Of a DNA stretch of 19,008 nt, positions 1,331 through 19,008 are shown in pieces; positions within the stretch are counted from its first letter, which is position 1, and each line of letters begins with the position of its first letter. Both the position numbers and the translations under genes were made by a program. The DNA comes from Myxococcota bacterium. GTDB taxonomy: Bacteria; Myxococcota_A; UBA796; GCA-2862545. The DNA lies in the NCBI GenBank assembly GCA_039208735.1, contig JBCCQY010000177.1, positions 1 through 19,008 of the forward strand, given 5' to 3'. The notes beneath the pieces are model-generated. The model had not been told where the DNA came from and searched no databases. It saw only the letters and a list, made by a program, of their open reading frames with translations.

Positions 1331-3520
1331 CTACGGGGACGCACCACTCCACCGATTCGGCGGAACGTGGGCCGCCACCGCGTCCGGAATCGGAACGAAG
1401 ATCGCATCATCGATCCGCACCGGACCGAACCGGCCCGTCGCCGCCAACGGCTGTTCGAGGATGGCCTTTGCATGATCCCGGGCCTGGGTGTGATTGAAGG
1501 CGGGACGAGCCCCGTTCTTGAGGCTGCGGATCCAAAGGTAGAGCGTCGTATACACCCCATCACCCTTGTCTTGGGAAATGACGTTGTGACCATAGACGCC
1601 AGGCCAGCCCGGATGGATGATCTCGCCACCCTCGAGGATGACGTGGGCCTGCCAATAGCGAACCCCCCGGTCCTGATCCCCCGTCGTGGCACTGCCATCG
1701 GCGCCGCGCAACCTGGCGGTCCCCCCGCTGGGAGCCGTGCCTAGCGCCGTCCAGTGGTCGACGTACCGGATGCGGGGAATTCCTTCAATGGCCGGTCGCG
1801 AGACGTTGTTCCGCTCCGCGAAGTCCGCCGGCAGACGCTCGAGTTCGCGATCGGGCCAATACCGCGGATCGAGTTGTGGGAAGAGCTGCGGGACGGTGAT
1901 CGGCATGCCAGGTGAGGTGAGCCGCTCGACCAGCCGCCACAGTTGCTCGAGGCAGTCCTCGGGAGGGATGCGCACCGCGCCCGCCCGATGCTGTGGAGGC
2001 CACGGAAGCCACGGAATGGTCAAGCGCTTCGTCGGGTCGTTGTACTCCGCCACGTCTTGGACCGTGTCGCGCCCGGCCGTCGAGAAGTTCCAATCGTTTT
2101 GGACCTCGATGCCGATCGACGTGTCGCTGTGGGCATCCGCGTGGGACACGCGTTCCAGCAGGTCTGCCATCTGCGACACGGTTCCGCCGCGGGCCGCCCG
2201 GAAGTGCGCGCTGATGTTGGTCGAGGACGCGTTGCTCGTGGTGTCGTGAATGACCACCGAACCCGTATTCCGCACCGTCCGGATCGTGGTGTAGTCGTAG
2301 CGATCGATGCGTTTGGAATAGTGGTGGACCTGCGCTGCCGACCAATTCTCGAACTGAGCGATCCCGCGGGTTGCGTACTCCGCACAGCCCACGATCATCG
2401 TATTCTGCCTTTGGGGCGTATAGTCCGGAACGCTGTTTGGATTCCCTCCCCGTCTGGCGGCATCCGTACAGTCGAGCCCCGGGGTGACGATCGTGCCCCT
2501 GGGTTCACCGCGTCGACGATTCTCGAACTGCGCATCCGACCCCAGGAACCGAGGGGGCAAGGCGGCGGGGGTCGGGTTGGTGTACTCGAGGGCGAAGACG
2601 TAGCTCTCTGGACCATTCTCGGCGGCGAAGGTCTTGCGACGTCCGGTGTGAGTCGGCCGACACGTCCGCTCCAGGTAGGGATAGGTCGGCGGGTCCGTCG
2701 GGGGCTCGACCACGGGGATGATGTGCTGAGCAAAGCCATCCGTCGTTGTGGGAAAGAGGCTGATGTCATCGATGGAGTCGATGTCACGGAAGTGTGGTCC
2801 GATGCTGTCGAGCAGTTCCGTATACGCAATGTCGCCGTTGAGGGAAAGGGCATCCTGCAAGATCGAAATGGGGCAGACGAAGGACTGATCGGCGCGCTGG
2901 GCGGTGATGCGCAGGTTCGGAACGGCGAGGTCGAATGCCGTCAGGGGGAAGCCCTTGCGCAGGAAGAGGCTGGCCTCGCCCCAGGCCGTCGTCCAACGGA
3001 TCCACTGGGAGATGCGCAAGATGTCCGTCTCATCACTGGGCTCCGGGGGGCGTGGATCCGCCCCTGGAGGAGGGGGCTCGGTGGGACCTCCCCCGGCGAG
3101 GTAGTCCCGCCACCATTGCTGGAGATGCCCCACCCCGCCAGCGGTCGACTGTAGGCGAAGGACCTCGGCATCGATCGCCGTACTGAATTGCACCAGGTCC
3201 ACCCCCATGAAGTAGAGGTGGGTGATCCGAGGGTTGTCGCGGTTGCGCCGCCGATGCAAACGCCCACGGCCGTGGTGCGGAAGTTCGCACACGATCGTCG
3301 TCCGAGGCACCGTTCCCGGGGGCAGCGCGGCGATGGCGGGCGTAGTGAGATCTTCAGCTCGGAGCGCCCGGTAGTGGCCGTCGACGACCGTGTGAATCCG
3401 AAACAGCGCCGAGGACGGTGCGGGCCGAAGCAACCGGACGAGCAGTTCGGACCACCCGGGCAAGAACCCTACGGCCACATGGAGGTCCTCGAGATTGGGG
3501 TTGGGTTCGATCATCCCCAT
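1331..3520 (-). CDS. N-acetylmuramoyl-L-alanine amidase (Amidase_2/AmpD/PGRP-like) domain protein, paralogue B, 729 aa, with unrecognised N-terminal domain
   Basis: C-terminal 729 aa of track ORF 1331..4270. The start is placed at ATG 3520 (MGMIEPNP) because GGAGGAG lies at 3533-3527, the upstream stop is at 3525-3523, and it aligns with the start of paralogue A. Amidase motifs: VVIHDT (Zn His), ISAHF, VSHA, SIGIEVQN (catalytic Glu), VYGHNVISQDKGDG (Zn His and Asp, as in AmpD GH...K.D.G). Confidence 0.85.
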   Translation of the reverse strand: MGMIEPNPNLEDLHVAVGFLPGWSELLVRLLRPAPSSALFRIHTVVDGHYRALRAEDLTTPAIAALPPGTVPRTTIVCELPHHGRGRLHRRRNRDNPRITHLYFMGVDLVQFSTAIDAEVLRLQSTAGGVGHLQQWWRDYLAGGGPTEPPPPGADPRPPEPSDETDILRISQWIRWTTAWGEASLFLRKGFPLTAFDLAVPNLRITAQRADQSFVCPISILQDALSLNGDIAYTELLDSIGPHFRDIDSIDDISLFPTTTDGFAQHIIPVVEPPTDPPTYPYLERTCRPTHTGRRKTFAAENGPESYVFALEYTNPTPAALPPRFLGSDAQFENRRRGEPRGTIVTPGLDCTDAARRGGNPNSVPDYTPQRQNTMIVGCAEYATRGIAQFENWSAAQVHHYSKRIDRYDYTTIRTVRNTGSVVIHDTTSNASSTNISAHFRAARGGTVSQMADLLERVSHADAHSDTSIGIEVQNDWNFSTAGRDTVQDVAEYNDPTKRLTIPWLPWPPQHRAGAVRIPPEDCLEQLWRLVERLTSPGMPITVPQLFPQLDPRYWPDRELERLPADFAERNNVSRPAIEGIPRIRYVDHWTALGTAPSGGTARLRGADGSATTGDQDRGVRYWQAHVILEGGEIIHPGWPGVYGHNVISQDKGDGVYTTLYLWIRSLKNGARPAFNHTQARDHAKAILEQPLAATGRFGPVRIDDAIFVPIPDAVAAHVPPNRWSGASP
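2102..2120 (+). repeat. 19-bp exact direct repeat, copy 1 (GACCTCGATGCCGATCGAC)
   Basis: Identical to 17505-17523; encodes SIGIEV in both amidase paralogues. Confidence 0.85.
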
Positions 3521-3522
3521 GG

Positions 3523-4860
3523 TCAACTCCTCCAACCCGGAAGGGACCAGGCTTGCTGGCTGCGGGCCCGCAGCGTCCAAGCTGCACTCGTGGCGACGAC
3601 CCGTACGAAGGTCACGGGGTCCAACGGACGGGCGAAACGCAGGACGACCGCCACCGACGCCCTGCCCTGGGCCGGCACGTGCACGAGGGGCTCGCGCAGC
3701 TCGTGGGCAACCGTGCGCCAGCCGTACCCATCGGGCGCTCCGAGGCGCTCCTCGAACGTCAGTGCCACATCCTCGGCATCGACATCGCCTTCGTTGGTCA
3801 ACGCTACGACGGCGAGCACCTCGACAACGTCGTCCTGGACTCGGGAGTCTCGTGCCGACAACGCCACCGCGATCGTGGGTGAGGGAACCTCCGCCGGGTT
3901 CAAGACGTCGGACGCCACCGGAGCGCTGGCCTGAAGGCGCGTGGCGGATCGCACCAAGGCTCGGAATTCGTGAGGCGCCGCGACCTGCCGCCAATTCAGC
4001 GAAGCGTGCCCCACCATCCCGTCCGGACTGGGGGTTCCCGGTTCCCACAAGCCGACGGGGAACCAACCTGGCGCCCCTTGGGAGCGCACTTGGATCTCGA
4101 CGTCGGCGTCGCCCAGCGGGGTCGTCGTGCGAAGGGTCAAGGGGATCCGTCGGGCGGGCCCGGTATCGACCGGCGCTCCCGCCTCGAGCACCAGATCCCC
4201 AGGCGTAGCGTCCCCCAGGGCCACATCGACCGTCGCGACCTCTGGCGCATGCGCGGTTCGAGGCCACCACGCGAGCGCCCGCAGCTTGGTGGTCGCAGAG
4301 GACCGATGGCCGTGTCGAATCGTCGCGTCGATGCGAAAGGTCCGCGTCTCGCCAGGCGAAAGCGAAGGCACCGCGATGGGCGCATGAAGGGGAGGTTCGA
4401 CCACATCGGGTCGATCGGCCACCAGGTGCACGACGAGGCCCTCGAGCACGCGGGACGTGGCATTGGTCAAGGACACCGAGGCCGCGGTCTCCGCATTCCC
4501 CAGGTCGGTCTCGATGACCGGAGTCGTCTCGAGCAACAACCCCAAGAGCGGAGCCGGCGCCGTCGTGCCCGCGCGGTGGTCGGGAGAAAGAACGTCGAAC
4601 CGGAGTTGTTGGCCGGTCGTAGGGGGGCGCGGAACCCGTTGACGACGCAGCCAGAGATGCGGGCGGCCGTCCGTTCCTCGAGCCAGCACGTACCGGGTTT
4701 CAACCCGGACCCCGAGTTCTGAAATGACTCCGGCCTCGATGGCGTGCACCGCGCCCGAAGGATCGGCGAGCAGGGGACTCCGGGGCTCGGGCGTCAAACG
4801 AGGTTCGCCGTCGCGAAGATCGGCGAGTCGGGACTGGACGAATCGGCGATGGGTGGGCAT
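3523..4860 (-). CDS. Hypothetical protein, 445 aa: conserved ~90-aa module (normally the C-terminus of the upstream family) followed by Ig/CARDB-like beta domains
   Basis: Track ORF 3523..4965, start moved to ATG 4860 (GGAGG at 4870-4866, upstream TAG at 4874-4872). N-terminal motifs are RRFVQSRLAD, GVRVETRYVLARGTDGRPHLWLRRQR and LRFDVL. These are followed by SVSLTNATS...VPSLSPGETRTFRI and VVALTNEGDVDAEDVALTF...VHVPAQGRASVAV, which resemble CARDB/Ig-like folds. It could instead be the frameshifted 3' part of the upstream gene. Confidence 0.72.
   Translation of the reverse strand: MPTHRRFVQSRLADLRDGEPRLTPEPRSPLLADPSGAVHAIEAGVISELGVRVETRYVLARGTDGRPHLWLRRQRVPRPPTTGQQLRFDVLSPDHRAGTTAPAPLLGLLLETTPVIETDLGNAETAASVSLTNATSRVLEGLVVHLVADRPDVVEPPLHAPIAVPSLSPGETRTFRIDATIRHGHRSSATTKLRALAWWPRTAHAPEVATVDVALGDATPGDLVLEAGAPVDTGPARRIPLTLRTTTPLGDADVEIQVRSQGAPGWFPVGLWEPGTPSPDGMVGHASLNWRQVAAPHEFRALVRSATRLQASAPVASDVLNPAEVPSPTIAVALSARDSRVQDDVVEVLAVVALTNEGDVDAEDVALTFEERLGAPDGYGWRTVAHELREPLVHVPAQGRASVAVVLRFARPLDPVTFVRVVATSAAWTLRARSQQAWSLPGWRS
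3527..3533 (-). promoter_or_regulatory. Shine-Dalgarno GGAGGAG for amidase B
   Basis: The minus strand reads GGAGGAG-TTGACC-ATG (6-nt spacer), spanning the upstream TGA. Confidence 0.8.
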
Positions 4861-4865
4861 CGGGA

Positions 4866-4870
4866 CCTCC
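4866..4870 (-). promoter_or_regulatory. Candidate Shine-Dalgarno GGAGG for the 445-aa gene
   Basis: The minus strand reads TAG-C-GGAGG-TCCCG-ATG (5-nt spacer). It could also be chance GCG GAG GTC coding sequence. Confidence 0.55.
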
Positions 4871-4871
4871 G

Positions 4872-6170
4872 CTACGTCGTATCCGCGACGTGATCGTGGA
4901 CCGGGCCCACCACGTCCACATGACGCTCGAGTTGAGGGGGAAGCTGCAAGGTGTAGGGGTGCCAATGCGGCCGGAGCGGCGACGTGGGGTCGTACCGCTG
5001 CGCCACGGCCTCCGAGGCATCCGCCACAAAGCCAGGCTCGAGGGGCTCCCGGTCTTTGGGGCGCTCGTCAGAGACCTCCACGCCATCGATGCGCCGCTCC
5101 ACGGCCCAGAGCAAGTTGGCATCTTCGTCCACGGCGAGATCGACCTCGTCGATCGGCGGCCCCGCCAGAGGGCTCGCGGCCAAGGGGAAGACCGGCAGCG
5201 ACCAGCGAGAGGGCACCCCGTCGACATCGAAGAGCGACCAATCCCCCTCCGGAGGCGACAGCGTGTGGCGTTCTCCGAAGGAATCGGTGACCTCGATGGA
5301 CGACAGCGTCACCATCTGGCCCACCAGCGGGGTTTCGGGCGCCTTCACCAGAAAGAGGAACCAGTCGTCGCTGTGGGAACTCACCACGTCGATCAACAGC
5401 AGCGTGGCAAAGTGGCTCCGATCGGGAGGAAATCCACCCACATCGAAGGATCGAGGCTCAATCTCCCACCATCTCGGCGCAGGTGCACCCTGGTAGTTCA
5501 TACGGATCGGGAGAGTGACGGCACGCTCCATCACGCTCTGGTCTGGAGCCGGACCGGGGCGACCATCCGCCGAATACCAATCGATGGCGCCTCCCGTCGA
5601 CGCGATGTCGAACCGCACGGGCCCCGCATCGACCTGCCCGGTATGGATGAATCGACTTGGGTCCCACGTGTCACCGAGCGGAGCCCGCGCCTCGTCGGGG
5701 AGGTCGGCAAGCCACTCGGCAGGCACGCCCAATGCCTCACGGGTCCGTGCGATGCGCAGCCCGTCCGGGGCGACCCCATTGAACGCATCGTACGGCGGAG
5801 GCAAGCCACGGGCCGATAGGGCCCGGAGGCCCTCGACCAAATCCGGCCGTTCGGCCTCGGCCCTCGCCACCCATCGCGCCCCATGCCGAAGCCGTCGTCC
5901 TGGCGTCCACCACTGGTCGGGATGGGCTTCGACCAACGCGGACGTCGGAGTGGTTCGTGCATCGCGGCCCTGTGGATCGGTGAGCGGCTGCAGGGTGACT
6001 TGGTAGTGCACCAAGATCGGCGAGCCAGCATCTTCCCCTTGCAACTCGCCCAGTTGCCACTGCCGAGTCAAGAACCAGGCAGGATCCGCAATCGGCGCGG
6101 TGAATCCCTGATCGAGGTCGCCGGATGGAGCCGCGGGCTCCAGACGAGCGTAGCTATCAAAGAACGGCAT
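4872..6170 (-). CDS. Conserved hypothetical protein of DUF6603-associated clusters ('DPAWFLTRQWQLGELQGEDAGSP' family), 432 aa, apparently lacking its usual C-terminal module
   Basis: Track ORF 4872..6176; ATG 6170 preferred because GGGGAGG lies at 6183-6177, 6 nt upstream. Motifs RLEP, DPAWFLTRQWQLGELQGEDAGSPI, IDWYSAD, YQGAPAPRWWEIE, DDWFL, IEVTDSFGE and DEDANLLWAVER match a recurrent uncharacterised family that I recall being encoded next to DUF6603 genes. Confidence 0.82.
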   Translation of the reverse strand: MPFFDSYARLEPAAPSGDLDQGFTAPIADPAWFLTRQWQLGELQGEDAGSPILVHYQVTLQPLTDPQGRDARTTPTSALVEAHPDQWWTPGRRLRHGARWVARAEAERPDLVEGLRALSARGLPPPYDAFNGVAPDGLRIARTREALGVPAEWLADLPDEARAPLGDTWDPSRFIHTGQVDAGPVRFDIASTGGAIDWYSADGRPGPAPDQSVMERAVTLPIRMNYQGAPAPRWWEIEPRSFDVGGFPPDRSHFATLLLIDVVSSHSDDWFLFLVKAPETPLVGQMVTLSSIEVTDSFGERHTLSPPEGDWSLFDVDGVPSRWSLPVFPLAASPLAGPPIDEVDLAVDEDANLLWAVERRIDGVEVSDERPKDREPLEPGFVADASEAVAQRYDPTSPLRPHWHPYTLQLPPQLERHVDVVGPVHDHVADTT

Positions 6171-6176
6171 GGGCAC

Positions 6177-6183
6177 CCTCCCC
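6177..6183 (-). promoter_or_regulatory. Shine-Dalgarno GGGGAGG for the 432-aa gene
   Basis: The minus strand reads TGA-GC-GGGGAGG-GTGCCC-ATG (6-nt spacer). Confidence 0.75.
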
Positions 6184-6185
6184 GC

Positions 6186-9100
6186 TCACGCGTCTTCCAC
6201 TTCAAGTTCGACCGCGGCGGGACCGTGCTGGGGCACGAGGGCCGTCGGCAGGAACGACGCGAGCCCTGCGATCGCATCGTTGGTAGGTTGAACGGACCGA
6301 ACCCGCGCCAAGGCTCGGGCTTCGAGCACCACCTCGAGCAGGTCGAGGCTCGACGGCTGCCACACTTCGTCCACCGTGGGGGGAACCGCGACGAGGAACG
6401 CTTGGGGACTGCGCGAGGCAGGCGCGTCAAATCCAAACGCCACCGCGGCCGGCCGCTCGGGCTCGGGCACCAACTCGGCAAACCGGTCGATGAGCAGCAT
6501 GGCCACGGGCCCATCGAGGTCCGCTCCATCGTGAACCAGAACCACGACCAAAGGCGGCGCCCCGAGCTGATCGAGCTGCCCGAGCTGCCAGGGATCCGTT
6601 GGACGACTGCACCGGAGCGTTGGGGGCGGCTCTCCCGCGAGATCCGCGTCGAACCACGCGGCTTCGGTGGCGGCCAGGGCCGGCTGGACGGGGGCGACCG
6701 AGGAGATCCAGTCTCGAACCTCCTCCCCCGCGTCGAGCAACTCGGGCAGCGCCGTGCGGGCCAGGCCCGTATCCAGGTTGCTGATCGCGTACTCGCCGTG
6801 AGGCGCGACCAGATCCGTGAGCAGGCGACAAAGGTCGGGCAAGGGGAGTTTCGACAACAACCGCTGAACGCGTTCGGCCGTCCAATCCGACAATCGCCAG
6901 GAAGCGGGCGGCCCGACGGCCGGATCATCGTCTTGCGCACTCGCCGTGAGGGCTTCCTCGAGGCGGGTCGAAGCGGTGGTGTGACGTCGGCGCAGGTTCG
7001 CGGCGTAGGCCAGGCCCCCGGTCGGCTCCACCGCCGGAAGGCCCCATCGCCGCAGTTGCTCGAGGGTCGCGCCCAGCAAGGGTTCGGCGGTCGTCAGGCC
7101 GGCGAGGAGGGTGTCGAGGTCGCTTAGGCACTCGAGCACACGCTCCAGCGCCTCCTGTCCGATCCGCTCGCGATCGCGTTGAACCTCGGGGCGCGCATCG
7201 TATTCGGCGCCTCCGCTGCTCAAGTCCGCGACCGTGAAGGGGCGGGACCCGAGGGCACGGACGAACCGCCCCATCCGCGTTCGTGAGGCCGAGCCAGGCG
7301 CCGCGGATCGTTCCATCGCAACCGCATGACGAGGGACGCCGAGCGAGATCGCGATTTGCTCGGCCGCGACCCCTCGGGCCACCTCTTCGAGGTCCGGGCC
7401 GGAAAGACACGCCGCGGAACTCGGAGTGAGCCCAAGGTCTGACAGCGCGACGGTAGTGTCGGCTTGTTGCCCCTGGGTCCGGCCCACGAACGACCACGTC
7501 CATGGCGCAGTGCCAAACTGACGGTCGAGGAGCTGTGCCACGTGGGGATCCGCACGTTCGGCCGGAGTCGTTCCGGGCGGTGCCACAGGCAGGATCGCCA
7601 CCACGACGGTGCGGAGGTGCCGCGCTTCGACGGGAGACGGCAACACCTCGAGACTCGGGGGGATGCTGAGCCCCGCCGCCGCATCGAGGGCCGCTCCTGC
7701 GAGCTGGCCTCGGCCTTGCACGACGTGGTGCACGGACTGTGCGACGAGGAGGTCTGCGTAGACGTCGACCAGGTCGGCGAGGTGCGTCCGGATCCGCTCG
7801 GTGACCGCAAATCCCTCGAAATCGGGCCAAAGGTTGCCGCTCGTGCGGGCCTCCTCGAGTACGCGGAGCCCGTCACACACGCGCCTGCCGCCGTCCGAAC
7901 GGCGAGCCGGGAACCGCCGGCGGAGGTCTTCGATGCGAACCGGGTCGTCCACCAGGGTCTCGATCTCGAGGCCCAACGCAAGCGTCGGGTGCAACCCGGA
8001 TCGCACCTGCTCCGCCAATTGCTTGGCAAGACGGGCCTTGCGACCGGTCACGTTCATTGCGAAGCGTCCGGGATCCGGGTCCCGCAAATGACGTTCACGA
8101 AGGATGGCGGCCGTCTTCGCCTGGTCCTGCGAAGGAGCGAGGACCGCCCCTCCGAGCGTGGGGCCGCCGCCCCCCGGCGCGAGCCCTTCGACCCATCCGT
8201 ACGCCCCAAGTCGCGAGGGGACCGCCGCGGATCGCAGCACCCGGTCGAGGCGGCGGGTGGCGGGAGCCGACAACCAGGTGTCGAGACGGTGCGATGCGGC
8301 ATCGAGGGCGCCTCGCAAGCCGCGGTCGATCCCCTCGGCCTCGGTCGCGATGAGGTCGGCGAGCCGCTGTAGCGCTGCGATCATCCGCCCGGTTGGAGAG
8401 TCGGCGGGTTGCGGCGGAGCAGCCTCGATCCAAGCGACGAAGTTCGACTCGCGGAGCTGGAGGATGGCGTCGAGGGTCGGACCGGGTTCGCCAAGGGCCC
8501 GACGGCCTTCATCCGCCAACGCGAGCTGCAGCGACGAGCGGGCGAGCCGCAGGAATACGCTCGCGTCCGAACCCATGCGATCGGCCACCGCCTTCCCGTC
8601 GGCAAACGCACCCGGGTCCCAGCCCGACACGAGGGGTTCGACGAGATTCCGCAGCGCCTCGGCGACGATCGTGGCGTCGCCATCGACGGGAATCACGCGA
8701 GGCAGGCTCGTTCCACGGACACTGTACACCGAAGCCAGACGCCGCCAGGGCACAATCCCGAACGTCGTGAGTTCGTCGGTCAGGTCGTGCCACGCTTCTG
8801 CATGAGGCAGGGGCGGCGGCCCAGCCGGCGTGTCGGCAAAGAGGAGGTCGTAGGGAAAGACCTTGCGCCACCAGATGTCGTGGCTGACGGGCGCTCGACC
8901 TGCGAGATCGAGCAGCTGCTCGGCCGATGCTCCTTCGACGGTGCCCTCACCGTCCGCGGCCCTAAGCCAGGTCCCCCGAGCCAACGACAGGCGAGGCACC
9001 ACATGCGACAGGAGCGAAGCAGGCTCCTGGAAAGCGTCGTGGGCCTGGAGCCGGGCCAACGGCGCGACCGGAAGAATGCCGTAGGGTTGGTCGTCGATGC

Positions 9101-10067
9101 GGATGGGCGGAAGCGGACCTTCGGGGCGAAGGGCCTCCATGGCCCAGGAGGCGAGGTCGACAACCGCGTCGCCCGTCCGCCAGAAGTTGCCGAGGCCATG
9201 ACCCCACAACGCAGGCCAGAGGGCCGAGATCACCGCGCCTTGAACCTCGTGCGCCACCGAGGGGGAGGACGCGGGGGCCTCATCAAGGCCATGGGCATCG
9301 CCGAGGAGCAATTGGGCCAACCGCTGAAGAGGCCCCGACGAGGATGGCGTCGGCGGTGTAAGGGGCTCGCTTGCATCATCGTCTCTACGGGCGGGGGTGG
9401 GCGCGCCCTCCACCGTGTTGGTCGGCTGGCCTGGCGTGAGCACGGCAAGCTTTCCGGCGTCTCGATGCGCGGCGAACAGCCCGTCCGCCGGCGTGTCTCC
9501 CACCCCCACCACCACCAGGGCGTCAAACGGCAGGCGAGCCCGATCCTCGTCCGACAGCGGAACGGTTCCCGCAAGACCGACGTCCTCAGCGGCTCGAAAG
9601 GAGTTCCACCAGCGCTCCCCTTCGGCCGTGTCCGGATCGGAATCGGGAAGGTCGAGGTCGATGGCGGCCAGGTTGGGTCGCAGGACGATTCGCGGTCCCG
9701 ACTCCGTGTGTTCGAGTCCATCCAGATCGGGCAGGAGCCACACGTCGAGCTGGGAGGGCAGGCCCACGATCTGCCGCCATCGGCCTTGCACATCGGTCCC
9801 GGTTCCGTCCGAACCTCGGCGCACGAGCCAGCGGGCACGTCCAAGGCCTCGACGATCGACGAGGCGTTGCCATCGCGCCTGCCGCTGGGTCGAGGTCTCC
9901 GCGTTCTCCCACGCCCGAAGATCGGCCAGCTCCGCCTCGGTCGGCTCCGGAGCGTGGTCATCGAACCAGGGCTCATCCGGGATCACCCGAATCTTGAGGG
10001 CCGTGGGGAACTCGGGTGTCGGATGGAACCGCGTTTCGATACGCAGCGGAAGCAGCAGCGGCGTCAT
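6186..10067 (-). CDS. Large conserved hypothetical protein of DUF6603-associated clusters, 1293 aa
   Basis: Long ORF with protein-like composition and an ATGA overlap with the upstream gene at 10064-10067. Recurrent family motifs: LLLPLRIETRF..LKIRVIPD, PGQPTNT, RPEGPLPPIRIDDQPYGILPV, LDAASHRLDTW, GAYGWVEGL, LAPSQDQAKTAAILR, RVCDGL, and C-terminal AFGFDAPASRSPQAFLVAVPP..W..ALARVRSV. Confidence 0.88.
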   Translation of the reverse strand: MTPLLLPLRIETRFHPTPEFPTALKIRVIPDEPWFDDHAPEPTEAELADLRAWENAETSTQRQARWQRLVDRRGLGRARWLVRRGSDGTGTDVQGRWRQIVGLPSQLDVWLLPDLDGLEHTESGPRIVLRPNLAAIDLDLPDSDPDTAEGERWWNSFRAAEDVGLAGTVPLSDEDRARLPFDALVVVGVGDTPADGLFAAHRDAGKLAVLTPGQPTNTVEGAPTPARRDDDASEPLTPPTPSSSGPLQRLAQLLLGDAHGLDEAPASSPSVAHEVQGAVISALWPALWGHGLGNFWRTGDAVVDLASWAMEALRPEGPLPPIRIDDQPYGILPVAPLARLQAHDAFQEPASLLSHVVPRLSLARGTWLRAADGEGTVEGASAEQLLDLAGRAPVSHDIWWRKVFPYDLLFADTPAGPPPLPHAEAWHDLTDELTTFGIVPWRRLASVYSVRGTSLPRVIPVDGDATIVAEALRNLVEPLVSGWDPGAFADGKAVADRMGSDASVFLRLARSSLQLALADEGRRALGEPGPTLDAILQLRESNFVAWIEAAPPQPADSPTGRMIAALQRLADLIATEAEGIDRGLRGALDAASHRLDTWLSAPATRRLDRVLRSAAVPSRLGAYGWVEGLAPGGGGPTLGGAVLAPSQDQAKTAAILRERHLRDPDPGRFAMNVTGRKARLAKQLAEQVRSGLHPTLALGLEIETLVDDPVRIEDLRRRFPARRSDGGRRVCDGLRVLEEARTSGNLWPDFEGFAVTERIRTHLADLVDVYADLLVAQSVHHVVQGRGQLAGAALDAAAGLSIPPSLEVLPSPVEARHLRTVVVAILPVAPPGTTPAERADPHVAQLLDRQFGTAPWTWSFVGRTQGQQADTTVALSDLGLTPSSAACLSGPDLEEVARGVAAEQIAISLGVPRHAVAMERSAAPGSASRTRMGRFVRALGSRPFTVADLSSGGAEYDARPEVQRDRERIGQEALERVLECLSDLDTLLAGLTTAEPLLGATLEQLRRWGLPAVEPTGGLAYAANLRRRHTTASTRLEEALTASAQDDDPAVGPPASWRLSDWTAERVQRLLSKLPLPDLCRLLTDLVAPHGEYAISNLDTGLARTALPELLDAGEEVRDWISSVAPVQPALAATEAAWFDADLAGEPPPTLRCSRPTDPWQLGQLDQLGAPPLVVVLVHDGADLDGPVAMLLIDRFAELVPEPERPAAVAFGFDAPASRSPQAFLVAVPPTVDEVWQPSSLDLLEVVLEARALARVRSVQPTNDAIAGLASFLPTALVPQHGPAAVELEVEDA

Positions 10068-13000: not shown

Positions 13001-13483
13001 TTGCACGTGGGCCCAGGCGTGGGAGTCCGTCAGGGGAAGCGTGGCGAGGAACGCGGGCTCGAGTGTGACCTCGACCGGATCGGCATCGAGATGCAGCGAC
13101 AGATCGGCACGATCCTCTTCGGTGGCGTGTTGCCCGACGACGAGCACCAACCAAGGCCGTTTGCGTCCGTCGGTGGCTGGTTCAGGCGAGTACAGCCATG
13201 GAAGCGCCGGATCGTCGAACTCGACCAGCGCCAGTCGCGTGCGTTCGGCGTCTCGCACCCCGGGAGCGGGGAACCGACGAGTCACCGCACCCGCCTCGAG
13301 GGACTGGACATCGTCCACCGAAGCCAGATCTACGACGATCTCGGCGGGCAGATCGTTGGCCACGCCATCGGCGGAACGCTCGGTCATCGTGAAGCGCAGC
13401 GACGCTCGAGGTCGGCCCGTGGTGTAGGCCACCGAATCCAGCAACGGAGGATGGCTCCAATTGTGAAACCGGATCATCGGCAT
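10064..13483 (-). CDS. Large conserved hypothetical protein of DUF6603-associated clusters, 1139 aa, with central beta-rich Ig-like insertion
   Basis: Long ORF with a TGATG overlap with the DUF6603 gene at 13481-13485 and GGGAGA upstream. Family motifs: LVEFDDPALPWLYSP, RPWLVLVV, SHAWAHVQ, RLLAPRRL, YAHWRFRTG..DF..LA..L, ELNADPRHRGAAGLG, FVESLLVGINQQLLAELKWRGLP, LRRFW, ELFRRYP, WFVLEE. Confidence 0.88.
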   Translation of the reverse strand: MPMIRFHNWSHPPLLDSVAYTTGRPRASLRFTMTERSADGVANDLPAEIVVDLASVDDVQSLEAGAVTRRFPAPGVRDAERTRLALVEFDDPALPWLYSPEPATDGRKRPWLVLVVGQHATEEDRADLSLHLDADPVEVTLEPAFLATLPLTDSHAWAHVQDLEGDRLARLLAPRRLEAHTDYTAVLVPAFVREGEAVVDAWSASSTESVRLPAYAHWRFRTGEDDDFLALAQALEPQVAPPYLGRTALRYPRQPLAPRLSAPGALAAQTPLPAPDAEDPWPIVEALPATVADDLAELRSFASSGRDERGRPIVTLPHYGEPWSTTDLWSTELNADPRHRGAAGLGAELGIADQDRLVDLTMQAMGPVREAQQRVRHLALGVSAARSLWNRHLPATRAERVLLLGTAMPRIMTEQGPLADVATGSTRSLSRALFSSAARRVLRRGPPRAERASPNAHRKEDLLEAANACPVPPPDPRGLMVVEPDPLDVDRSLDATAVLGHLDPALGRTPQDAEALSRLRTALEEATGGGSGTPVTAGTSPVFDSQRVSIVVQLPPLSGPGGGPLAGGGLELPRFATADVTLSTRSDASEDELEIMVIAAGIVGWRLSIDVAGTLLSMSESTGGSLRYRLPSRPPERGVNVIVELDGDEVQAPGRDSVWLQLGTHFVEATLTPNTWTPDRLRASLQLDITNPSERALRAATVEVGGTSIPLAVDVPAGATTQVTQPVDLPADTTGTSPTVVVEGRATGVLQVPRPAGGTVSFSTTPWLVPFVLATRSAPGRSGEAERIWGQLRPWAENATADDLDTWGENLQGTPWEGLDAVTVRALGQALRDRPRPPVSPHPPCAPVDLARLDEVLVQAFDPTGPNYRVIDRVNRTLPGRDPDAGIEPIGVCPDVPLPVWELLRARRADWLLPGLASLTPHAVVALRTDRAFVESLLVGINQQLLAELKWRGLPITPGCSPLRRFWGRVDPETGETLYDVEPLGKWANTPLADASHQPGDGRASLVVVLRTELFRRYPATLTYLLPAGPDPQNPDFSDPDSHAGLARSYPIFQGAIGDDVVFFGFDVSPEEAAGHWFVLEEPSRGFRFWSVQDDQERLAEALAGVDRGDSGAHVAANTFANPVRVMLRGDRLVSEGGS

Positions 13484-16400
13484 CAGAGATCTCCCACCAT
13501 GATGAGGTCATCCACGGGGAGGGCGACCCCGCCTCGGTGACGCGCCACCTGGTGCGCCGTGGTCTCGTGGCTGGACTCGCCCTCGCTTTCCCCGCCGTGC
13601 ACCTCCCAGCGCTCCTCCTCGAGCCCCAGTTCGGCGTTCACGGTGATGCGCGCCCCTTGGGTACGCGCCAACACCGCCGCGAGCACGTGGGGCTCGAGGG
13701 AGGGACCGGCCACCCGGCTCGGTTCCGGCCGGCCCACGACAAAGACGTCCGGGGTCAGCGCGACCTCTTGGGCGGGCGAGACGAGCCTTCGGTCTTCGCC
13801 ATCAAAGAGGAACCCTGCTCTCAGCCGTTCGAAGGACTTGCGGCCGATCGCTTCGGCATCCGTCAGATCGAGGAAGGAGGCGGGAGCGAACCAGTCGTAG
13901 GCATCATCCAGAGGGTCGCCCGTGGCCAACGCCAGATCGACCTCGACGGGTGCAGCGAGTGGGGTCCCTTCGAGACGCTCGATGATGACCCCAATGGGCA
14001 CCAGGCCTTGCGTCCACGACAGGCCCCCTCCAGGGTCGAACCGGGCCGCTTCCGCCGATTCCGAACGAAGGAGGATCCCGCGATACGGCGAAGGCTCGGA
14101 CCGAAGGGTCTCGGCTCGAAGTTCAGCCGCAAAGCGTTGAAGGACCGATTCGACATCGGCGATTTCGGCAGGGGCTTCCGAACCGATGCTGAACGAACCC
14201 GACCAGCAGGCCTTGAAGAAGAGGATTTCAATGCAGACTTCGCCCGCGAAGGTAACGGGGCCAGGGCCCGTCATGACCCCTTTCATCGAGACGCCGGCGA
14301 GACTCACCGAAAACAGCTTCACCTTGAACGCGGCCATGAAGCCGACGGAGAAGTAGAACGGGTCGAACACGATGAGAGCGTCGAACGCCAGCATTCCCTC
14401 GGCCTTGATGACCTCGAGGTTCAGGCGCACCTCGACCGCCGCGCCGAGCTGGAAACTCCCGGTCGTAATTGCCACATAGGTGGCCAGCCGCAGGTAGAAG
14501 AAGTCGCCCGGCTCTCCGTAGGTCAGCCCAACGCGCTCGGGGACGGGCACAACGGCCGGTTCCGGCACGAACTCGGGGTGGAAACCTCCGATGCTCATCA
14601 AGGCATAGGGACGGTCCCCCCAGCTCAAGCGCAGGGCGGCTCCGCCCGTGATCTCGAACACCTCGAGCAGCGAGGAATCCCGCAGGGCCGCGTCGATGGA
14701 CAGCAGGCGCGCCTCGAAGTCGATGATGCCGAGCACTTCGAGCTGGATGCGCACGATGGCGACATCTCCAGCCTCGATGGCAATGAGCGCGCGACCGAGG
14801 AGCACGATCTTGTTGGGCCCCGGCAGCTCGATCATGACGCCGACATCGAGCCGAACGAGTTCGACCCACCGCAGCTGGAGCGACAACCCGATGACGAAGT
14901 GGTCGACCGCGGTGGGGAAGTAGCGCTCCAGCTGCCCGATGAGCTGGGCTGGATTGTCGAGCCGGGACCCCGGATCCAGAAGCGTGCTGACCGCACCATT
15001 CGCGACATCCGCCCGGAGCGCGTCGGCGTCGATCTTCCGGTGGAGGCCAAAGATGCCGCCGATGCCGTTCAGGGTGAACCCGTAGCCGATCTGGATCCCG
15101 GGGAATTCCGCGGTGATCAGGATGAGCAAGCTGTACTCGGGACCGGGTTGAGGCAGGTCGACCTGCACAAGACCGAGTGCGGTCACCGCAAACTCGCTCA
15201 CCCGGAGGGCCAGAAACCCGGAATACCGACCGATCTCGGGCTCGAGGGTGATGTAGCCGGCTCCCGTGACCGCACCCGCGTCAATGGCTAGGCCGACCCC
15301 CGATGGGGGTTTGAAGCTGGCGGCAAGCTCGGCGGGGCCCAGATTGCCGCCTCGTTCCGGAAACGTCAGCTCGGCGACGAGGCCCATTCGCTCGACGGTG
15401 ACAACCAGGGGGCCCAAGGTGCCCTGAAGGCCCGTGGCCGCCATCAACTCGACGGTGGTGCCATCGAAGCCAAGGCGCAGGGCAAGCTGGTTGAGCGCAA
15501 TGGGGCCAAGCGAAACGTTGAGCGGCACGACCAGTTCGAGCCCCACGGCACCCCGAACCACAAGCCCCGTCGCCTGGCTCCAGTCGATCTCCAGATCGAA
15601 TCCGATGGCCAGGGCTTCTTGCGGGACGACGCCCTGAAGGAAAGAATCCGCGTCGTCGAAGCGAAGGGCCACCTTCAGTTGCTTGAGGGCGAGGCCAAGC
15701 CCGACGTCCACGTCACCCAACGGCGTCGCCTCGACATCGAGGTGGGTCTTGAACTCGAACGCCCGGGTATCGAGTTCGATGGGCCCGAGACGTGCGCCGT
15801 GGCCTGTCAGCGCCCCACTCCCCCCAAAGGTGCGCTCGTCGCCGGCCCCCCCAGGCTGGCGGGACAGCGCGATGGTGCCCCCGACGGCCGTGTCGAGCCG
15901 AGCCCCCAGATCGACAGCGAGGGTGTTGGATGTCGGATCCGCCTCGATTTCAAGGGCCACGGCGGGGGATGGAAGATTCGCTGCGAGCCGGAGGCTCCAG
16001 ACCTCCGCGAAGGGGATCGTGATTTCCGTCAGGCCCTGCACCACAGGGGCTACGCCAAGTCTCACCCGCTGGGCCGCGTCGATTTCGGTCACGTATAGCG
16101 TGGCGCCAGCAAAGCCCGTGGTGCCGATCTGACGGCCCATCAACATCGCCTGATCGATCCGAAGGTCACCGGGCATCGCGACATTTCGTACGTCTTCGAC
16201 GGTACGAAGCCAGTCTTCGTCATGACCCGCATCCAAGATGCGCTCACCGGTAAGCGTGGCGAGGGCCGCGAGGAACCCGCTGGAAGCAAGCGGACTCTCT
16301 CGATCGTGGATGCGATCGACGAGGTACGCTTGGGGATCTCGAAAGAGGAGGCCCAACCGGTGGCCCGCCGCACGGCGCACCGTGATGGGAACGGGCAGCG

Positions 16401-16824
16401 TCGGGGCCTGAACGCGTCGCATCTCGATGAGACCAAGCGCCCACAGCGCACCGCTTGCGCCAGCCTCCAGCTCTTCGAGCACCGATGCGAGCAACAGCAG
16501 CACCATGTTCAGTGCGTTGTCGAGCTGCAACGTAGCCCCGACCGTCGAGGTCAGTCGGTCCACAAGGTCGATCAGTCCGCGGATGAGGTCCACGGCCCCG
16601 GCGATGAGATCGGCTCCCGTGCCGACGGGATCCGCTTCGGGATCCTCAAGGAGGTCTGCAATTTGTTCAAGCACCGTCGCAAGGCCCCCGCTCGTGGTCG
16701 CGACCGCGGACTGGAGCGCCGCGAGGTCCGAGGGCGACGGAGACTGGCGGGTCTCGGCCAAGAGGTCGGACAGCCAGTCCGCACGCCTCACGATCTCGGC
16801 CGCCGTGCGCAACTCCTCAATCAT
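13483..16824 (-). CDS. DUF6603 domain-containing protein, 1113 aa
   Basis: ATGA overlap with amidase A at 16821-16824 and GGAG at 16835-16832. A helical N-terminus is followed by a long run of Gly-rich alternating beta-strands: LGPLVVTVERMGL, FKPPSGVGLAIDAGAVTGAGY, YSLLILITAEFPGIQIGYGFTLNGIGGIFGLHR, LSIDAALRDS, SIGGFHPEF, FQLGA, FDALIVFDPFYF, TGPGP. I recognise this as the DUF6603 signature (~14180-15420). Confidence 0.88.
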   Translation of the reverse strand: MIEELRTAAEIVRRADWLSDLLAETRQSPSPSDLAALQSAVATTSGGLATVLEQIADLLEDPEADPVGTGADLIAGAVDLIRGLIDLVDRLTSTVGATLQLDNALNMVLLLLASVLEELEAGASGALWALGLIEMRRVQAPTLPVPITVRRAAGHRLGLLFRDPQAYLVDRIHDRESPLASSGFLAALATLTGERILDAGHDEDWLRTVEDVRNVAMPGDLRIDQAMLMGRQIGTTGFAGATLYVTEIDAAQRVRLGVAPVVQGLTEITIPFAEVWSLRLAANLPSPAVALEIEADPTSNTLAVDLGARLDTAVGGTIALSRQPGGAGDERTFGGSGALTGHGARLGPIELDTRAFEFKTHLDVEATPLGDVDVGLGLALKQLKVALRFDDADSFLQGVVPQEALAIGFDLEIDWSQATGLVVRGAVGLELVVPLNVSLGPIALNQLALRLGFDGTTVELMAATGLQGTLGPLVVTVERMGLVAELTFPERGGNLGPAELAASFKPPSGVGLAIDAGAVTGAGYITLEPEIGRYSGFLALRVSEFAVTALGLVQVDLPQPGPEYSLLILITAEFPGIQIGYGFTLNGIGGIFGLHRKIDADALRADVANGAVSTLLDPGSRLDNPAQLIGQLERYFPTAVDHFVIGLSLQLRWVELVRLDVGVMIELPGPNKIVLLGRALIAIEAGDVAIVRIQLEVLGIIDFEARLLSIDAALRDSSLLEVFEITGGAALRLSWGDRPYALMSIGGFHPEFVPEPAVVPVPERVGLTYGEPGDFFYLRLATYVAITTGSFQLGAAVEVRLNLEVIKAEGMLAFDALIVFDPFYFSVGFMAAFKVKLFSVSLAGVSMKGVMTGPGPVTFAGEVCIEILFFKACWSGSFSIGSEAPAEIADVESVLQRFAAELRAETLRSEPSPYRGILLRSESAEAARFDPGGGLSWTQGLVPIGVIIERLEGTPLAAPVEVDLALATGDPLDDAYDWFAPASFLDLTDAEAIGRKSFERLRAGFLFDGEDRRLVSPAQEVALTPDVFVVGRPEPSRVAGPSLEPHVLAAVLARTQGARITVNAELGLEEERWEVHGGESEGESSHETTAHQVARHRGGVALPVDDLIMVGDL

Positions 16825-18701
16825 GGGCCGACTCCAGGCAATGGCAGCGTGTTTCGTTCGAGGCGAAGGGGTGGCTCGAGTTCCGGAACGGCAATGAACC
16901 GTGCGGTGCCGACCAGGATGACTGGGGACTCGAGGAGGGTGATGGCTCCGCGACGGGCCTGAAGATGGGTGCGACCAAGGCTTCGGAGCCAGAGGTACAC
17001 GATGGTAAAGACGCCGTCGCCTTTTCCGTCACGAATGGCGCAGTGCGCATAGATCCCTGGATAGGCCGCTTCGATGATGCGGTCCGCGTGACTGCCAATG
17101 CTGACGTGCCAAAACGCGTGGTCGGCCCAATCGGGACGGCGGCCCAGCGCAGTGGCCCACTCCGTGAGGATGCGCCTGGCCAACGGTCCAAGGCTGCGAC
17201 TCTGAATGGCCCAGTTGGGCCAATAGCGAGGGTCCAATTGCGTGAATAGCCGAGGAATCCGAAGCGGTATCCGTGCGCTCGTCAACCAATGAACCAGGCG
17301 CCAGGTGCTCTCGAGGCACCCGTGGGGAGGCACCCGTAGCCACTCTTGGGGTCCCCCTCGAAAGAGAGCCGCGTTTCTTACGTAGCACCGGCCGTCGGTG
17401 GCGTGCTCCCCTTCTCCGTCCCCTTCCTCGAGTTCCGTGTCGCCGCTCGTACAGCCATCGCCGCGCGGTCGGTACCCCGAATGAAGGTAGTTCCAATCAT
17501 TTTCGACCTCGATGCCGATCGACCCCGAACTGTGCTCGTGGGCGTGATTGACATGCTCCAGGAGGTCGGCGAGCTGGGTGACCTGATGACCCACGCGATG
17601 AACCAGGTAGTGGGCGTGGATGTTGGGGAGGTTGTTGTGGGAATTGTGGCTGGTGGTGTCATGGATCACGACACCACGGATCATCCCGGACGTCCGGATG
17701 GTGGTGTAGTTGTAGTCATCGAGCCGGTCGTCGTACCAGGGTCGCTGGTTTCGCCTCGTCGCCCAGGTCCCATAGGTGACCCCCACGGGAGCGGGGTACT
17801 CGATCGATCCGAGAACCGCGGACGTGTTGGAGGTCGGAACGAACGGCCGTTGGCGTCGGCCGCCCGCGCGGGACGGATTCGTGTATTCCAAGGGAAACAC
17901 ACGAGAATCCACGGTTGCGTTTCGACGGAAGGTGGTTCGCCTCGCTACGTGATCAGGCCGACGTGTGTCATCGATGTCGAACACCGGAATGAGGAATTGC
18001 GTCAAGACGTCTGTCGATCGCGGCTGGCGGCTCAGATCCTCGATCCGGGTCAGCGGCTCGGGAGGAGCGGCATCGCGGGTGGGGGTGTACGAAACCGTCC
18101 CGTTGAAGCTCACGATGTCCTGAATCACCGCCATGGGCGTCACGAACCCATCCCGGTGGGTCTTGGCCAGAATGCGCAGCCCATCCGCTCCGTCAAACAA
18201 CCCTATCGGCGTCCAGCGTCGCAGATCCACGCCATCGCGCCCTTCGAGGGCCAGGTGAATCAAAATACGCCGCATGAGTGCATCGGGCACGGGACCTGTG
18301 GGAGGAGGTTGCAAGCTCGTAGGCAGCGTTACTTGACGAACCATCGGCACCCACCCACGAAGGCGTTGACTGGAGAGGGTGCCCACGGCGGTGGTCAATC
18401 GTTCCGTGAACGAAGCGCGACTGATGCCACTGAGAAAGAGCTGTTTGATTCGGTGGACCGATGAGCCCCGGAGTCTCGCCAGATTCGTTCCGGCATTCGG
18501 CAACTCGCACACGACAGTATCTCCCGCGATGGGGGGCACCGCATCGTGGGAAGTCGCCATACGATAGGCACCGTGGGCGGGGCTCAGCACGACGAGGGGG
18601 CTGCTCGACCGGTTGAGGATCCACAGAGCACCAAACCCGGCGGCGAAGTCGAGGGCTACGTGTAGATCGTCTTGCACGACCGTTGGCTCGAACAGTCGCA
18701 T
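16821..18701 (-). CDS. N-acetylmuramoyl-L-alanine amidase (Amidase_2/AmpD/PGRP-like) domain protein, paralogue A, 626 aa, with unrecognised N-terminal domain
   Basis: ATG 18701 is preceded by GGAAGG and the upstream TGA (18710-18708). Motifs: GVVIHDT, IHAHYLV, VNHAHEHS, SIGIEVEN, IYAHCAIRDGKGDG. Colinear with CDS 1331..3520 over its whole length. Confidence 0.87.
   Translation of the reverse strand: MRLFEPTVVQDDLHVALDFAAGFGALWILNRSSSPLVVLSPAHGAYRMATSHDAVPPIAGDTVVCELPNAGTNLARLRGSSVHRIKQLFLSGISRASFTERLTTAVGTLSSQRLRGWVPMVRQVTLPTSLQPPPTGPVPDALMRRILIHLALEGRDGVDLRRWTPIGLFDGADGLRILAKTHRDGFVTPMAVIQDIVSFNGTVSYTPTRDAAPPEPLTRIEDLSRQPRSTDVLTQFLIPVFDIDDTRRPDHVARRTTFRRNATVDSRVFPLEYTNPSRAGGRRQRPFVPTSNTSAVLGSIEYPAPVGVTYGTWATRRNQRPWYDDRLDDYNYTTIRTSGMIRGVVIHDTTSHNSHNNLPNIHAHYLVHRVGHQVTQLADLLEHVNHAHEHSSGSIGIEVENDWNYLHSGYRPRGDGCTSGDTELEEGDGEGEHATDGRCYVRNAALFRGGPQEWLRVPPHGCLESTWRLVHWLTSARIPLRIPRLFTQLDPRYWPNWAIQSRSLGPLARRILTEWATALGRRPDWADHAFWHVSIGSHADRIIEAAYPGIYAHCAIRDGKGDGVFTIVYLWLRSLGRTHLQARRGAITLLESPVILVGTARFIAVPELEPPLRLERNTLPLPGVGP
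17505..17523 (+). repeat. 19-bp exact direct repeat, copy 2 (GACCTCGATGCCGATCGAC)
   Basis: Identical to 2102-2120; residual DNA identity from gene duplication. Confidence 0.85.
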
Positions 18702-18707
18702 CGTGGC

Positions 18708-19008
18708 TCACCTTCCCAGGGCCACGAGCTGCTGCAGCCTCGTGGACCGGAAGGTGGACTGATCCAGAGCTAGCTCCAACGTCATCAAGGCGTGCAACAC
18801 CGCAGACGCTTCGCCGAGACTCGCGCCGTCCACGCGTTCCACGAGCGACGGCGCAGGGGTCACCATCACCTCGTCGAGCGTGGCCGGCCCGAGCGCTCTC
18901 CAATGCCCGGGGAGGCGACTGTGCCTGACCAGCCGTGCCTTGGTGACGATTTCTCGCAGGTGGTGGGCGGGGGTTTCCGTGAGGGAAACCATAGGAAGGA
19001 AGGCCAGC
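18708..19008 (-). CDS. Hypothetical protein, probably the 3' end of a gene starting beyond the right edge
   Basis: The frame of track ORF 18708..18992 stays open to the edge (LAFLP-MVSLTE...). The 16 nt upstream of ATG 18992 are pyrimidine-rich with no SD. The stop lies 6 nt before the amidase A start, which fits operon packing. Confidence 0.6.
   Translation of the reverse strand, partial: LAFLPMVSLTETPAHHLREIVTKARLVRHSRLPGHWRALGPATLDEVMVTPAPSLVERVDGASLGEASAVLHALMTLELALDQSTFRSTRLQQLVALGR

Follow-up and report, generated by a model that had tools for sequence, protein, structure and literature searches.

A widespread four-gene DUF6603 cassette, flanked here by twin amidases, as a candidate carrier of exchangeable hydrolases

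Results

We analysed a 19,008-base stretch of DNA, contig JBCCQY010000177.1 of a Myxococcota bacterium (hereafter the window; it is the entire contig, and the source genome is 9.4 Mb and 93% complete). It carries a run of large genes centred on a DUF6603 protein, with a putative peptidoglycan amidase gene at each end. The DUF6603 gene and its companions (cores 1 to 4) belong to a four-protein system that is widespread and has no description in the literature we searched; what it does can so far only be inferred. We tentatively favour a soluble four-protein particle that would carry exchangeable hydrolases and binding tips. This reading starts from what is observed, namely the gene set, its order, the variability of the slots on either side, domain fusions and the lack of export signals.

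Conserved order and patchy spread of the core

An earlier note on this DNA, made from its letters alone, had stated that the core recurs in the same order in diverse bacteria without a described function, and both points stood. The order 1-2-3-4 was found in 61/62 loci with at least 9 kb upstream, taken from the best 80 of at least 461 core 4 relatives that a scan of one genome per species returned among at least 597 stretches. These best 80 come from Actinomycetota, Pseudomonadota, Chloroflexota, Acidobacteriota, Planctomycetota, Verrucomicrobiota and Bacteroidota. The same order was seen in 5/5 further loci from the phylum of the window and in five annotated plasmid records, from Nocardia, Streptomyces, Rhizobium (where the cassette is split into more pieces) and two haloarchaea. 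Nothing on DUF6603 or PF20248 was found in the literature searched, with most subscription papers and all supplements, which may hold family tables, lying outside that search; a wider literature search yielded umbrella toxin papers only.

The distribution is patchy, with DUF6603 above its cut-off in 13/301 genomes of the phylum and in 0/18 other genomes of the family. The source genome holds three cassette copies in total, the window included. The two further ones (C180:3140-15323, and C8:89216-98702 continued by C277:3-2635) are complete, show 27–30% identity and have other neighbours, among them a 1074-aa (amino acid) unknown gene after the C180 cassette. Scanned with single proteins, genome and metagenome collections yielded no locus, and the viral contigs searched yielded no core 4. 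One record without annotation, deposited as a bacteriophage, contains a core 4-like match (MT835531.1:30694-31812, E 1e-7) and may be bacterial DNA. There is also a second class of giant DUF6603 proteins (1400–3800 aa) with other neighbours, and in 3/6 of these loci (L186, L190, L194; G227, G129, G292) the next gene is weakly like the N-terminal domain of core 2 (E 6e-12, 7e-8 and 1e-12).

Layout of the window

All the open reading frames that had been noted were present in the open reading frame listing at their positions, on the minus strand. They run in the order unknown gene end, amidase A, DUF6603, 1139 aa, 1293 aa, 432 aa, 445 aa, amidase B and Ser/Thr kinase:

18708..19008, minus strand: 3' end of the upstream gene, truncated by the contig end; no Pfam match; 6 nucleotides before amidase A
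16821..18701, minus strand: amidase A, 626 aa, in the front slot; PF01510 at 341–404; N-terminal part of about 300 aa without a named family
13483..16824, minus strand: core 1, long-form DUF6603, 1113 aa; PF20248
10064..13483, minus strand: core 2, 1139 aa; family regions 1–490 and 835–1139 with a clade-specific insert of about 340 aa between them
6186..10067, minus strand: core 3, 1293 aa; a family without a name, about 1000–2050 aa
4872..6170, minus strand: N-terminal piece of core 4, 432 aa from ATG (434 from GTG 6176)
3523..4860, minus strand: C-terminal piece of core 4 (445 aa), the first ~100 aa family sequence and then an added tail of ~350 aa; own ribosome-binding site
1331..3520, minus strand: amidase B, 729 aa, in the rear slot; PF01510; full-length paralogue of amidase A
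3..1310, minus strand: Ser/Thr kinase, truncated by the contig end; PF00069 at 63.5 bits and a weak zf-HC2 finger, with an apparently degenerate kinase-like region ahead of the kinase domain

The junctions confirm the tightly overlapping run of large genes, with an amidase at each end, that the earlier note had described. Amidase A overlaps the DUF6603 gene by 4 nucleotides (ATGA), the 1113-aa and 1139-aa genes meet at TGATG, and the 1139-aa and 1293-aa genes at ATGA. A 15-nucleotide gap with GGGAGG then leads to the ATG at 6170, an 11-nucleotide gap with GGAGG separates the 432-aa and 445-aa genes, and a 2-nucleotide gap with GGAGGAG precedes amidase B. The reading frames are genuine, as 31 of 39 usable strain differences (the first 39 usable among 40 shown of 151) lie at third codon positions. 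So do 7 of the 10 listed in the upstream frame (18708..19008), and the operon may start further upstream than amidase A. The kinase gene probably lies outside the cassette; if its inferred start is right, it begins with the ATG at 1310, 20 nucleotides after amidase B. Scans for sigma-70 promoters (0 vs 1.2 expected) and terminators (4 vs 10.1 expected) were uninformative, and the only repeat in the window is the amidase paralogy. Cores 2–4 (3523–13483) are poor in lysine, at 0.2–0.6%; the long frames of the genome have a median of 1.6%, and the core values fall close to the lowest tenth. Cysteine is absent from both core 4 pieces.

The four core proteins

Core 1 matches DUF6603 (PF20248) with 362.8 bits against a curated cut-off of 27 bits, residues 436–990 covering profile positions 2–501 of 502. 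This region is beta-rich and the N-terminus (about 1–170) helical; in a sequence search of solved structures, the N-terminal profile gave weak matches to helical bundles only. Cores 2, 3 and 4 had no match in Pfam, NCBIfam or PADLOC, and none in PHROGs below E 0.07. Core 2 has 3529 cluster representatives at 50% identity (E<=0.001), and its insert of ~340 residues is occupied in 17–33% of 111 aligned rows, being present in the three closest relatives and few others. The core 3 family numbers 92 proteins among 8000 scored candidates, and the core 4 family 351 among 8000 candidates, mostly of ~505 aa. Core 2 and core 4 showed no homology to each other. Sequence searches of solved structures with cores 1, 2 and 3, the amidase domain and both add-ons returned nothing meaningful (for core 3, no relative below E 0.25), and Protein Atlas gave only unnamed clusters with scores under 0.9. 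The add-ons had been described as Ig-like: the alignment upholds them as variable inserts, but an Ig fold was not borne out, there being no Pfam or PDB match although the sequence pattern permits one. The ~350-aa tail of the 445-aa protein likewise had no match in Pfam or PDB.

The core 4 family profile spans positions 4–411 in the 432-aa protein and 399–502 in the start of the 445-aa protein (E 6e-23), and the two halves are one gene in most related loci. Judged by these alignments, the pair represents a single ~505-aa family gene in two pieces, the second with an extra tail, and the core comprises four families, not five. The split marks a natural domain boundary, because the two closest relatives depart from the family sequence at the same point and continue into another domain. 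A frameshift artefact was considered and is disfavoured: a contig of run X1 (possibly the source sample, so not independent) spans the split with no indel, the second piece is preceded by a ribosome-binding site of its own, and the point of divergence recurs in the two relatives. At position 3873, within the 445-aa gene, one base differs in this long contig.

For core 4, the closest relative (P0244) was modelled and gave a beta-sandwich with a helical insert (predicted local distance difference test score 72, predicted template modelling score 0.71). The most conserved motifs (residues 1–50 and 232–254) are its least confident parts, and its last ~100 residues are of low confidence and unlike the family. 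No fold matched this model at E<=0.001 in PDB or BFVD, and no sheath, tube or baseplate fold was among the matches listed for this core 4 relative. The best Z score was 4.3, to an FN3-like fold, and 0/48,161 chains reached Z>=5, which is not proof of a new fold.

The earlier remark that signal peptides are not evident agrees with a crude test, in which signal-like N-termini were found in 0/116 core 2, 0/92 core 3, 0/120 core 4 and 0/35 neighbouring proteins. Among the 328 core 2, 3 and 4 proteins, the crude test found a single membrane-like stretch, and there was no twin-arginine motif. In profile scans the core proteins showed no domain for nucleotide binding, sensing or nuclease activity.

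Variable slots and fused modules

The genes next to the core vary. Across 40 regions upstream of other DUF6603 genes, the front slot held PhoD (7), S8 (2), M14 (2), and one each of NAL1/trypsin, PLD, TseH-like and M64 enzymes; the remainder comprised three unknown genes, one split-off DUF6603 N-terminus and 21 regions with no coupled gene. The split-off case (L142:8212-9255, G342) has the DUF6603 N-terminal part as a separate gene ahead of a short DUF6603 (E 6e-4). In the rear slot, S8 was above cut-off in 4/5 tested loci and occurs in Nocardia; M64 and M14 were seen there too. Both surveys thus bear out the expectation that variable hydrolases would be enriched beside the core.

Front genes go with one form of DUF6603. 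Long forms have about 1100–1140 aa, and short forms of ~750 aa lack the first ~350 residues; a coupled front gene accompanies 17/23 long forms vs 1/16 short forms. In a quick tree of 39 rows, with the window on a long branch, the short forms make up one clade and six long forms without a front gene fall in one subclade. The window DUF6603 groups with seven actinobacterial proteins (SH-aLRT, a likelihood-ratio branch test, 99), and each of the seven is coupled to a front gene; these genes are of five kinds or more (two M14, two S8, one PLD and two unknowns). Since the front gene changes between M14, S8, PLD and unknown genes within this one clade, slot turnover is fast.

A C-terminal helical tail is common to the S8 protease L123:5000-7627, the NAL1-type protease L124:6487-8097 and the front gene L037:1-420 (E 1e-5 pairwise, 6e-11 by profile) and is a candidate docking tag. 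Surface-type modules are fused to the core itself: core 4 is joined to two PG_binding_1 domains in L089 and L098, and the haloarchaeal cassettes have lamin-tail domains fused to core 4 and a BGTF surface domain in core 3. Beside the second cassette of the source genome, in divergent orientation, lies a 1086-aa gene (C8:85818-89078; L032:7119-10376, minus strand) whose last ~690 aa include peptidoglycan-binding sequence and are homologous to the C-terminal part of the L129 PhoD fusion (E 3e-31); it also has what we take to be a lysozyme-like motif. Going by these domain matches, a cell-wall theme recurs in other forms, in the core 4 fusions, in the peptidoglycan-binding protein by the C8 copy and in the L129 PhoD fusion.

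The twin amidases

The two amidases are 30% identical over 737 columns (E 1e-71). Because this alignment runs from the first residues, the start of amidase B is placed at ATG 3520 (729 aa), not at the GTG 4270 of the open reading frame finder. Amidase A has an N-terminal part of ~300 aa followed by an Amidase_2-type domain with long insertions. PF01510 scored 25.3 and 23.5 bits in the protein scan (cut-off 26) and 28.9 and 26.2 bits in the genome scan, weak matches in which the first two thirds of the profile align. Conserved in both are H347, H386, E398, H553 and K560-G-D562-G, and the Amidase_2 motif order is kept; read from the family motif (His, His, Asp/Cys plus Glu) rather than from a structure, H347, H553 and D562 are presumably the zinc ligands and E398 the catalytic Glu. 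The amidase domain had no solved relative by sequence.

The earlier note had treated the amidase bracket as a feature of the system, which was not sustained: 0/40 front slots hold an amidase, 0/80 Amidase_2 matches in 50 other cassette genomes are adjacent to a cassette (the nearest is about 27 kb from the DUF6603 gene of a four-gene cassette, by comparison of positions by eye), and no amidase relative stands at the two other cassettes of the source genome. A homologue search with amidase A found only itself. Relatives occur in 2/182 genomes of the class, the source genome included. The one outside relative belongs to a member of the same genus (G202), where its contig has no core genes; the pair is absent from the metagenome and viral contigs searched. 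To go by these searches, the amidases are near-orphan paralogues that fill the variable slots, and the bracket is a local variant.

Discussion

In the reading that we favour, the four core proteins would assemble in the cytoplasm into a soluble, non-enzymatic complex, the carrier particle. Whichever hydrolase occupies the front or rear slot would be its load, with the helical N-terminus of long-form DUF6603 as the likeliest docking site, and the variable binding modules, inserted in or fused to cores 2, 3 and 4, would be displayed. The particle's exit would need neither Sec nor Tat and would probably come when the cell lyses; the enzyme would then be delivered to dead biomass or the surface of a cell. 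At the window locus the predicted load is the duplicated peptidoglycan amidase. Strict order, coupling, the lack of enzyme domains and conserved segments that seem not to fold alone together suggest an obligate complex, and the low confidence of the conserved core 4 motifs fits segments that fold on a partner. The lack of a membrane anchor across three kinds of envelope argues for a soluble particle rather than a channel, and the interchangeability of both the hydrolases in the two slots and the surface-binding modules suggests a carrier by which an enzyme is taken to its target.

Several points weigh against this reading. The complex, cargo binding, release and target are all inferred. With 21/40 regions lacking a coupled front gene and many loci a rear gene, the core can stand without an adjacent load, and the carrier model would have to place the loads of half of the loci elsewhere in the genome. 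The link between long forms and front genes reflects few events, not 39, because the short forms are one clade and the exceptions one subclade. No docking domain is common to all loads; the helical tail occurs in three (S8, NAL1-type and L037) only, and not in the amidases. Fold evidence covers one of the four core proteins (core 4, through a relative), and a chain modelled by itself can score low confidence for other reasons as well. The window holds no holin or membrane protein. Finally, the target cannot be one polymer, because haloarchaea are without peptidoglycan.

The strongest alternative, which we consider unlikely, is an intracellular scaffold or cage that silences a hydrolase until a cue (stress, phage or development) frees it to act on the cell that made it; in that case the amidases would serve to lyse their producer. 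The crude test found export signals nowhere, amidase A runs directly into core 1 with no small immunity-like gene in between, and a patchy spread with plasmid copies and three divergent copies in one genome is typical of conflict systems. However, PADLOC 2023 defence profiles matched 0/7 window proteins at E<=0.01, and the core has none of the nucleotide-binding, sensor or nuclease domains that were looked for. Peptidoglycan-binding, lamin-tail and BGTF modules and PhoD-, M64- and TseH-type enzymes usually function outside the cytoplasm, which also speaks against a cage.

Less probable still is that the amidases are release enzymes for a core particle with its own effect, by analogy with the type 10 secretion endolysin for Tc toxins. 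Yersinia entomophaga is reported to free large signal-less proteins by holin/endolysin lysis (PMC10847048), and the peptidoglycan-binding protein beside the second cassette, whose counterpart in L129 is joined to PhoD, could be seen in the same light. Yet the window has no holin or spanin candidate, with one mildly hydrophobic stretch only, and the amidases are missing beside other cassettes, sit in a slot of non-lytic enzymes and have no viral relative.

A dedicated secretion or contact-killing machine across the envelope, as proposed in the earlier note, seems improbable too. A conserved, coupled operon with variable enzymes would suit one, and the beta-rich DUF6603 region could be a channel or groove, but the core has no membrane helix, lipoprotein signal or ATPase, and one and the same gene set is used by diderms, Actinomycetota and haloarchaea, whose envelopes differ. 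It is slightly more doubtful again that the amidases are passengers, landed on both sides of the cassette with no tie to it. They are near-orphans whose only relative is on a contig without core genes, and amidase A has a GC content of 62.5% vs 66–69% in the core; against this, two paralogues are coupled at opposite ends (4-nucleotide overlap and 2-nucleotide gap), in slots that hold hydrolases elsewhere, and front genes are coupled to the core in all other members of the clade.

Finally, a degenerate contractile-tail derivative with core 4 as the sheath is hardly credible: the core 4 profile does match 9ZDK chain S (E 2.4e-5), which is gp76, described in PMC12697256 as the tail sheath of Pakpunavirus P7-1, but it gave 23–26 bits on 6 near-identical sheaths and at most 2.2 bits on more distant relatives, the reciprocal search reached 2.1 bits at best, the hhalign probability was 0.75%, and the core 4 relative model matched no fold in PDB or BFVD at E<=0.001. 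As the homologue, reciprocal and profile-profile controls all failed, homology of core 4 to tail sheaths was rejected; no sheath family was found among 95 core 4 members.

The four-gene system, absent from the literature searched, counts its divergent members in the thousands, across many bacterial phyla and haloarchaea. If the carrier particle is correct, it would be both a modular scaffold and a new route by which signal-less enzymes get to dead biomass or other cells. What the window locus contributes is a load whose action is simple to read out, as peptidoglycan cleavage, and a naturally split core 4 that shows where a domain boundary lies. A bolder version, in which the cassette is a new class of large protein particle with new folds, unrelated to tails, Tc or umbrella toxins, for which bacteria and archaea supply interchangeable hydrolases as loads and interchangeable binding modules for aiming, and this copy is antibacterial and delivers the amidases to other cells, we regard as doubtful, if attractive.

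Comparison with known systems

Core 1 is a member of the Pfam family DUF6603 (PF20248), which is without a function; its three companion proteins are without a family. To Amidase_2 enzymes such as AmpD and T7 lysozyme (PF01510), the window amidases are tied by the weak profile match and the expected motif order. Unlike these, they are two to three times longer, with long insertions, an N-terminal half of no known kind and no export signal.

The enzymes beside cassettes overlap the cargo types of extracellular contractile injection systems (eCIS) and the type VI secretion system (T6SS), with a TseH-like enzyme, and with an eCIS_core protein in L124. Unlike them, the cassette has no sheath, tube, baseplate or spike by sequence, and profile scans of the window proteins agree with the earlier note in finding no T6SS, eCIS, phage-tail or Tc markers. 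Tube, baseplate and spike genes were absent from the window, whose contig is cut at both ends, and also from the complete plasmid loci; the window has no TssB/TssC, Hcp, VgrG or membrane complex. The source genome has five sheath matches, and VipB was not found in the 93% of it that is represented. Of 51 cassette genomes, many of them incomplete, 22 have a sheath match, 7 have VipB and 25 have neither, so that a contractile system is not required by the cassette.

Tc toxin complexes released through type 10 secretion (PMC10847048) resemble the cassette in having very large signal-less proteins encoded in an operon near a peptidoglycan hydrolase. They differ in that the window has no SpvB, RHS/YD or TcA domain and no holin or spanin, and in that the load is a separate gene and not a C-terminal extension. 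As for type 10 secretion, no membrane protein was found in the window, beyond position 19008 of which the DNA is missing. The one SpvB match of the genome is weak and lies on another contig, in a 3497-aa frame (G000:C153:10847-11044).

Umbrella toxins of Streptomyces consist of UmbA, UmbB and UmbC. UmbC has ALF repeats, a twin-arginine translocation (TAT) signal and a toxin fused to it; a trypsin-like domain is present in UmbA, and immunity genes follow (PMC11062931). Unlike them, the window core has no ALF or trypsin match, and the 328 core 2, 3 and 4 proteins have no twin-arginine motif. What the two share is a logic only: a conserved scaffold, a variable enzyme and variable binding tips.

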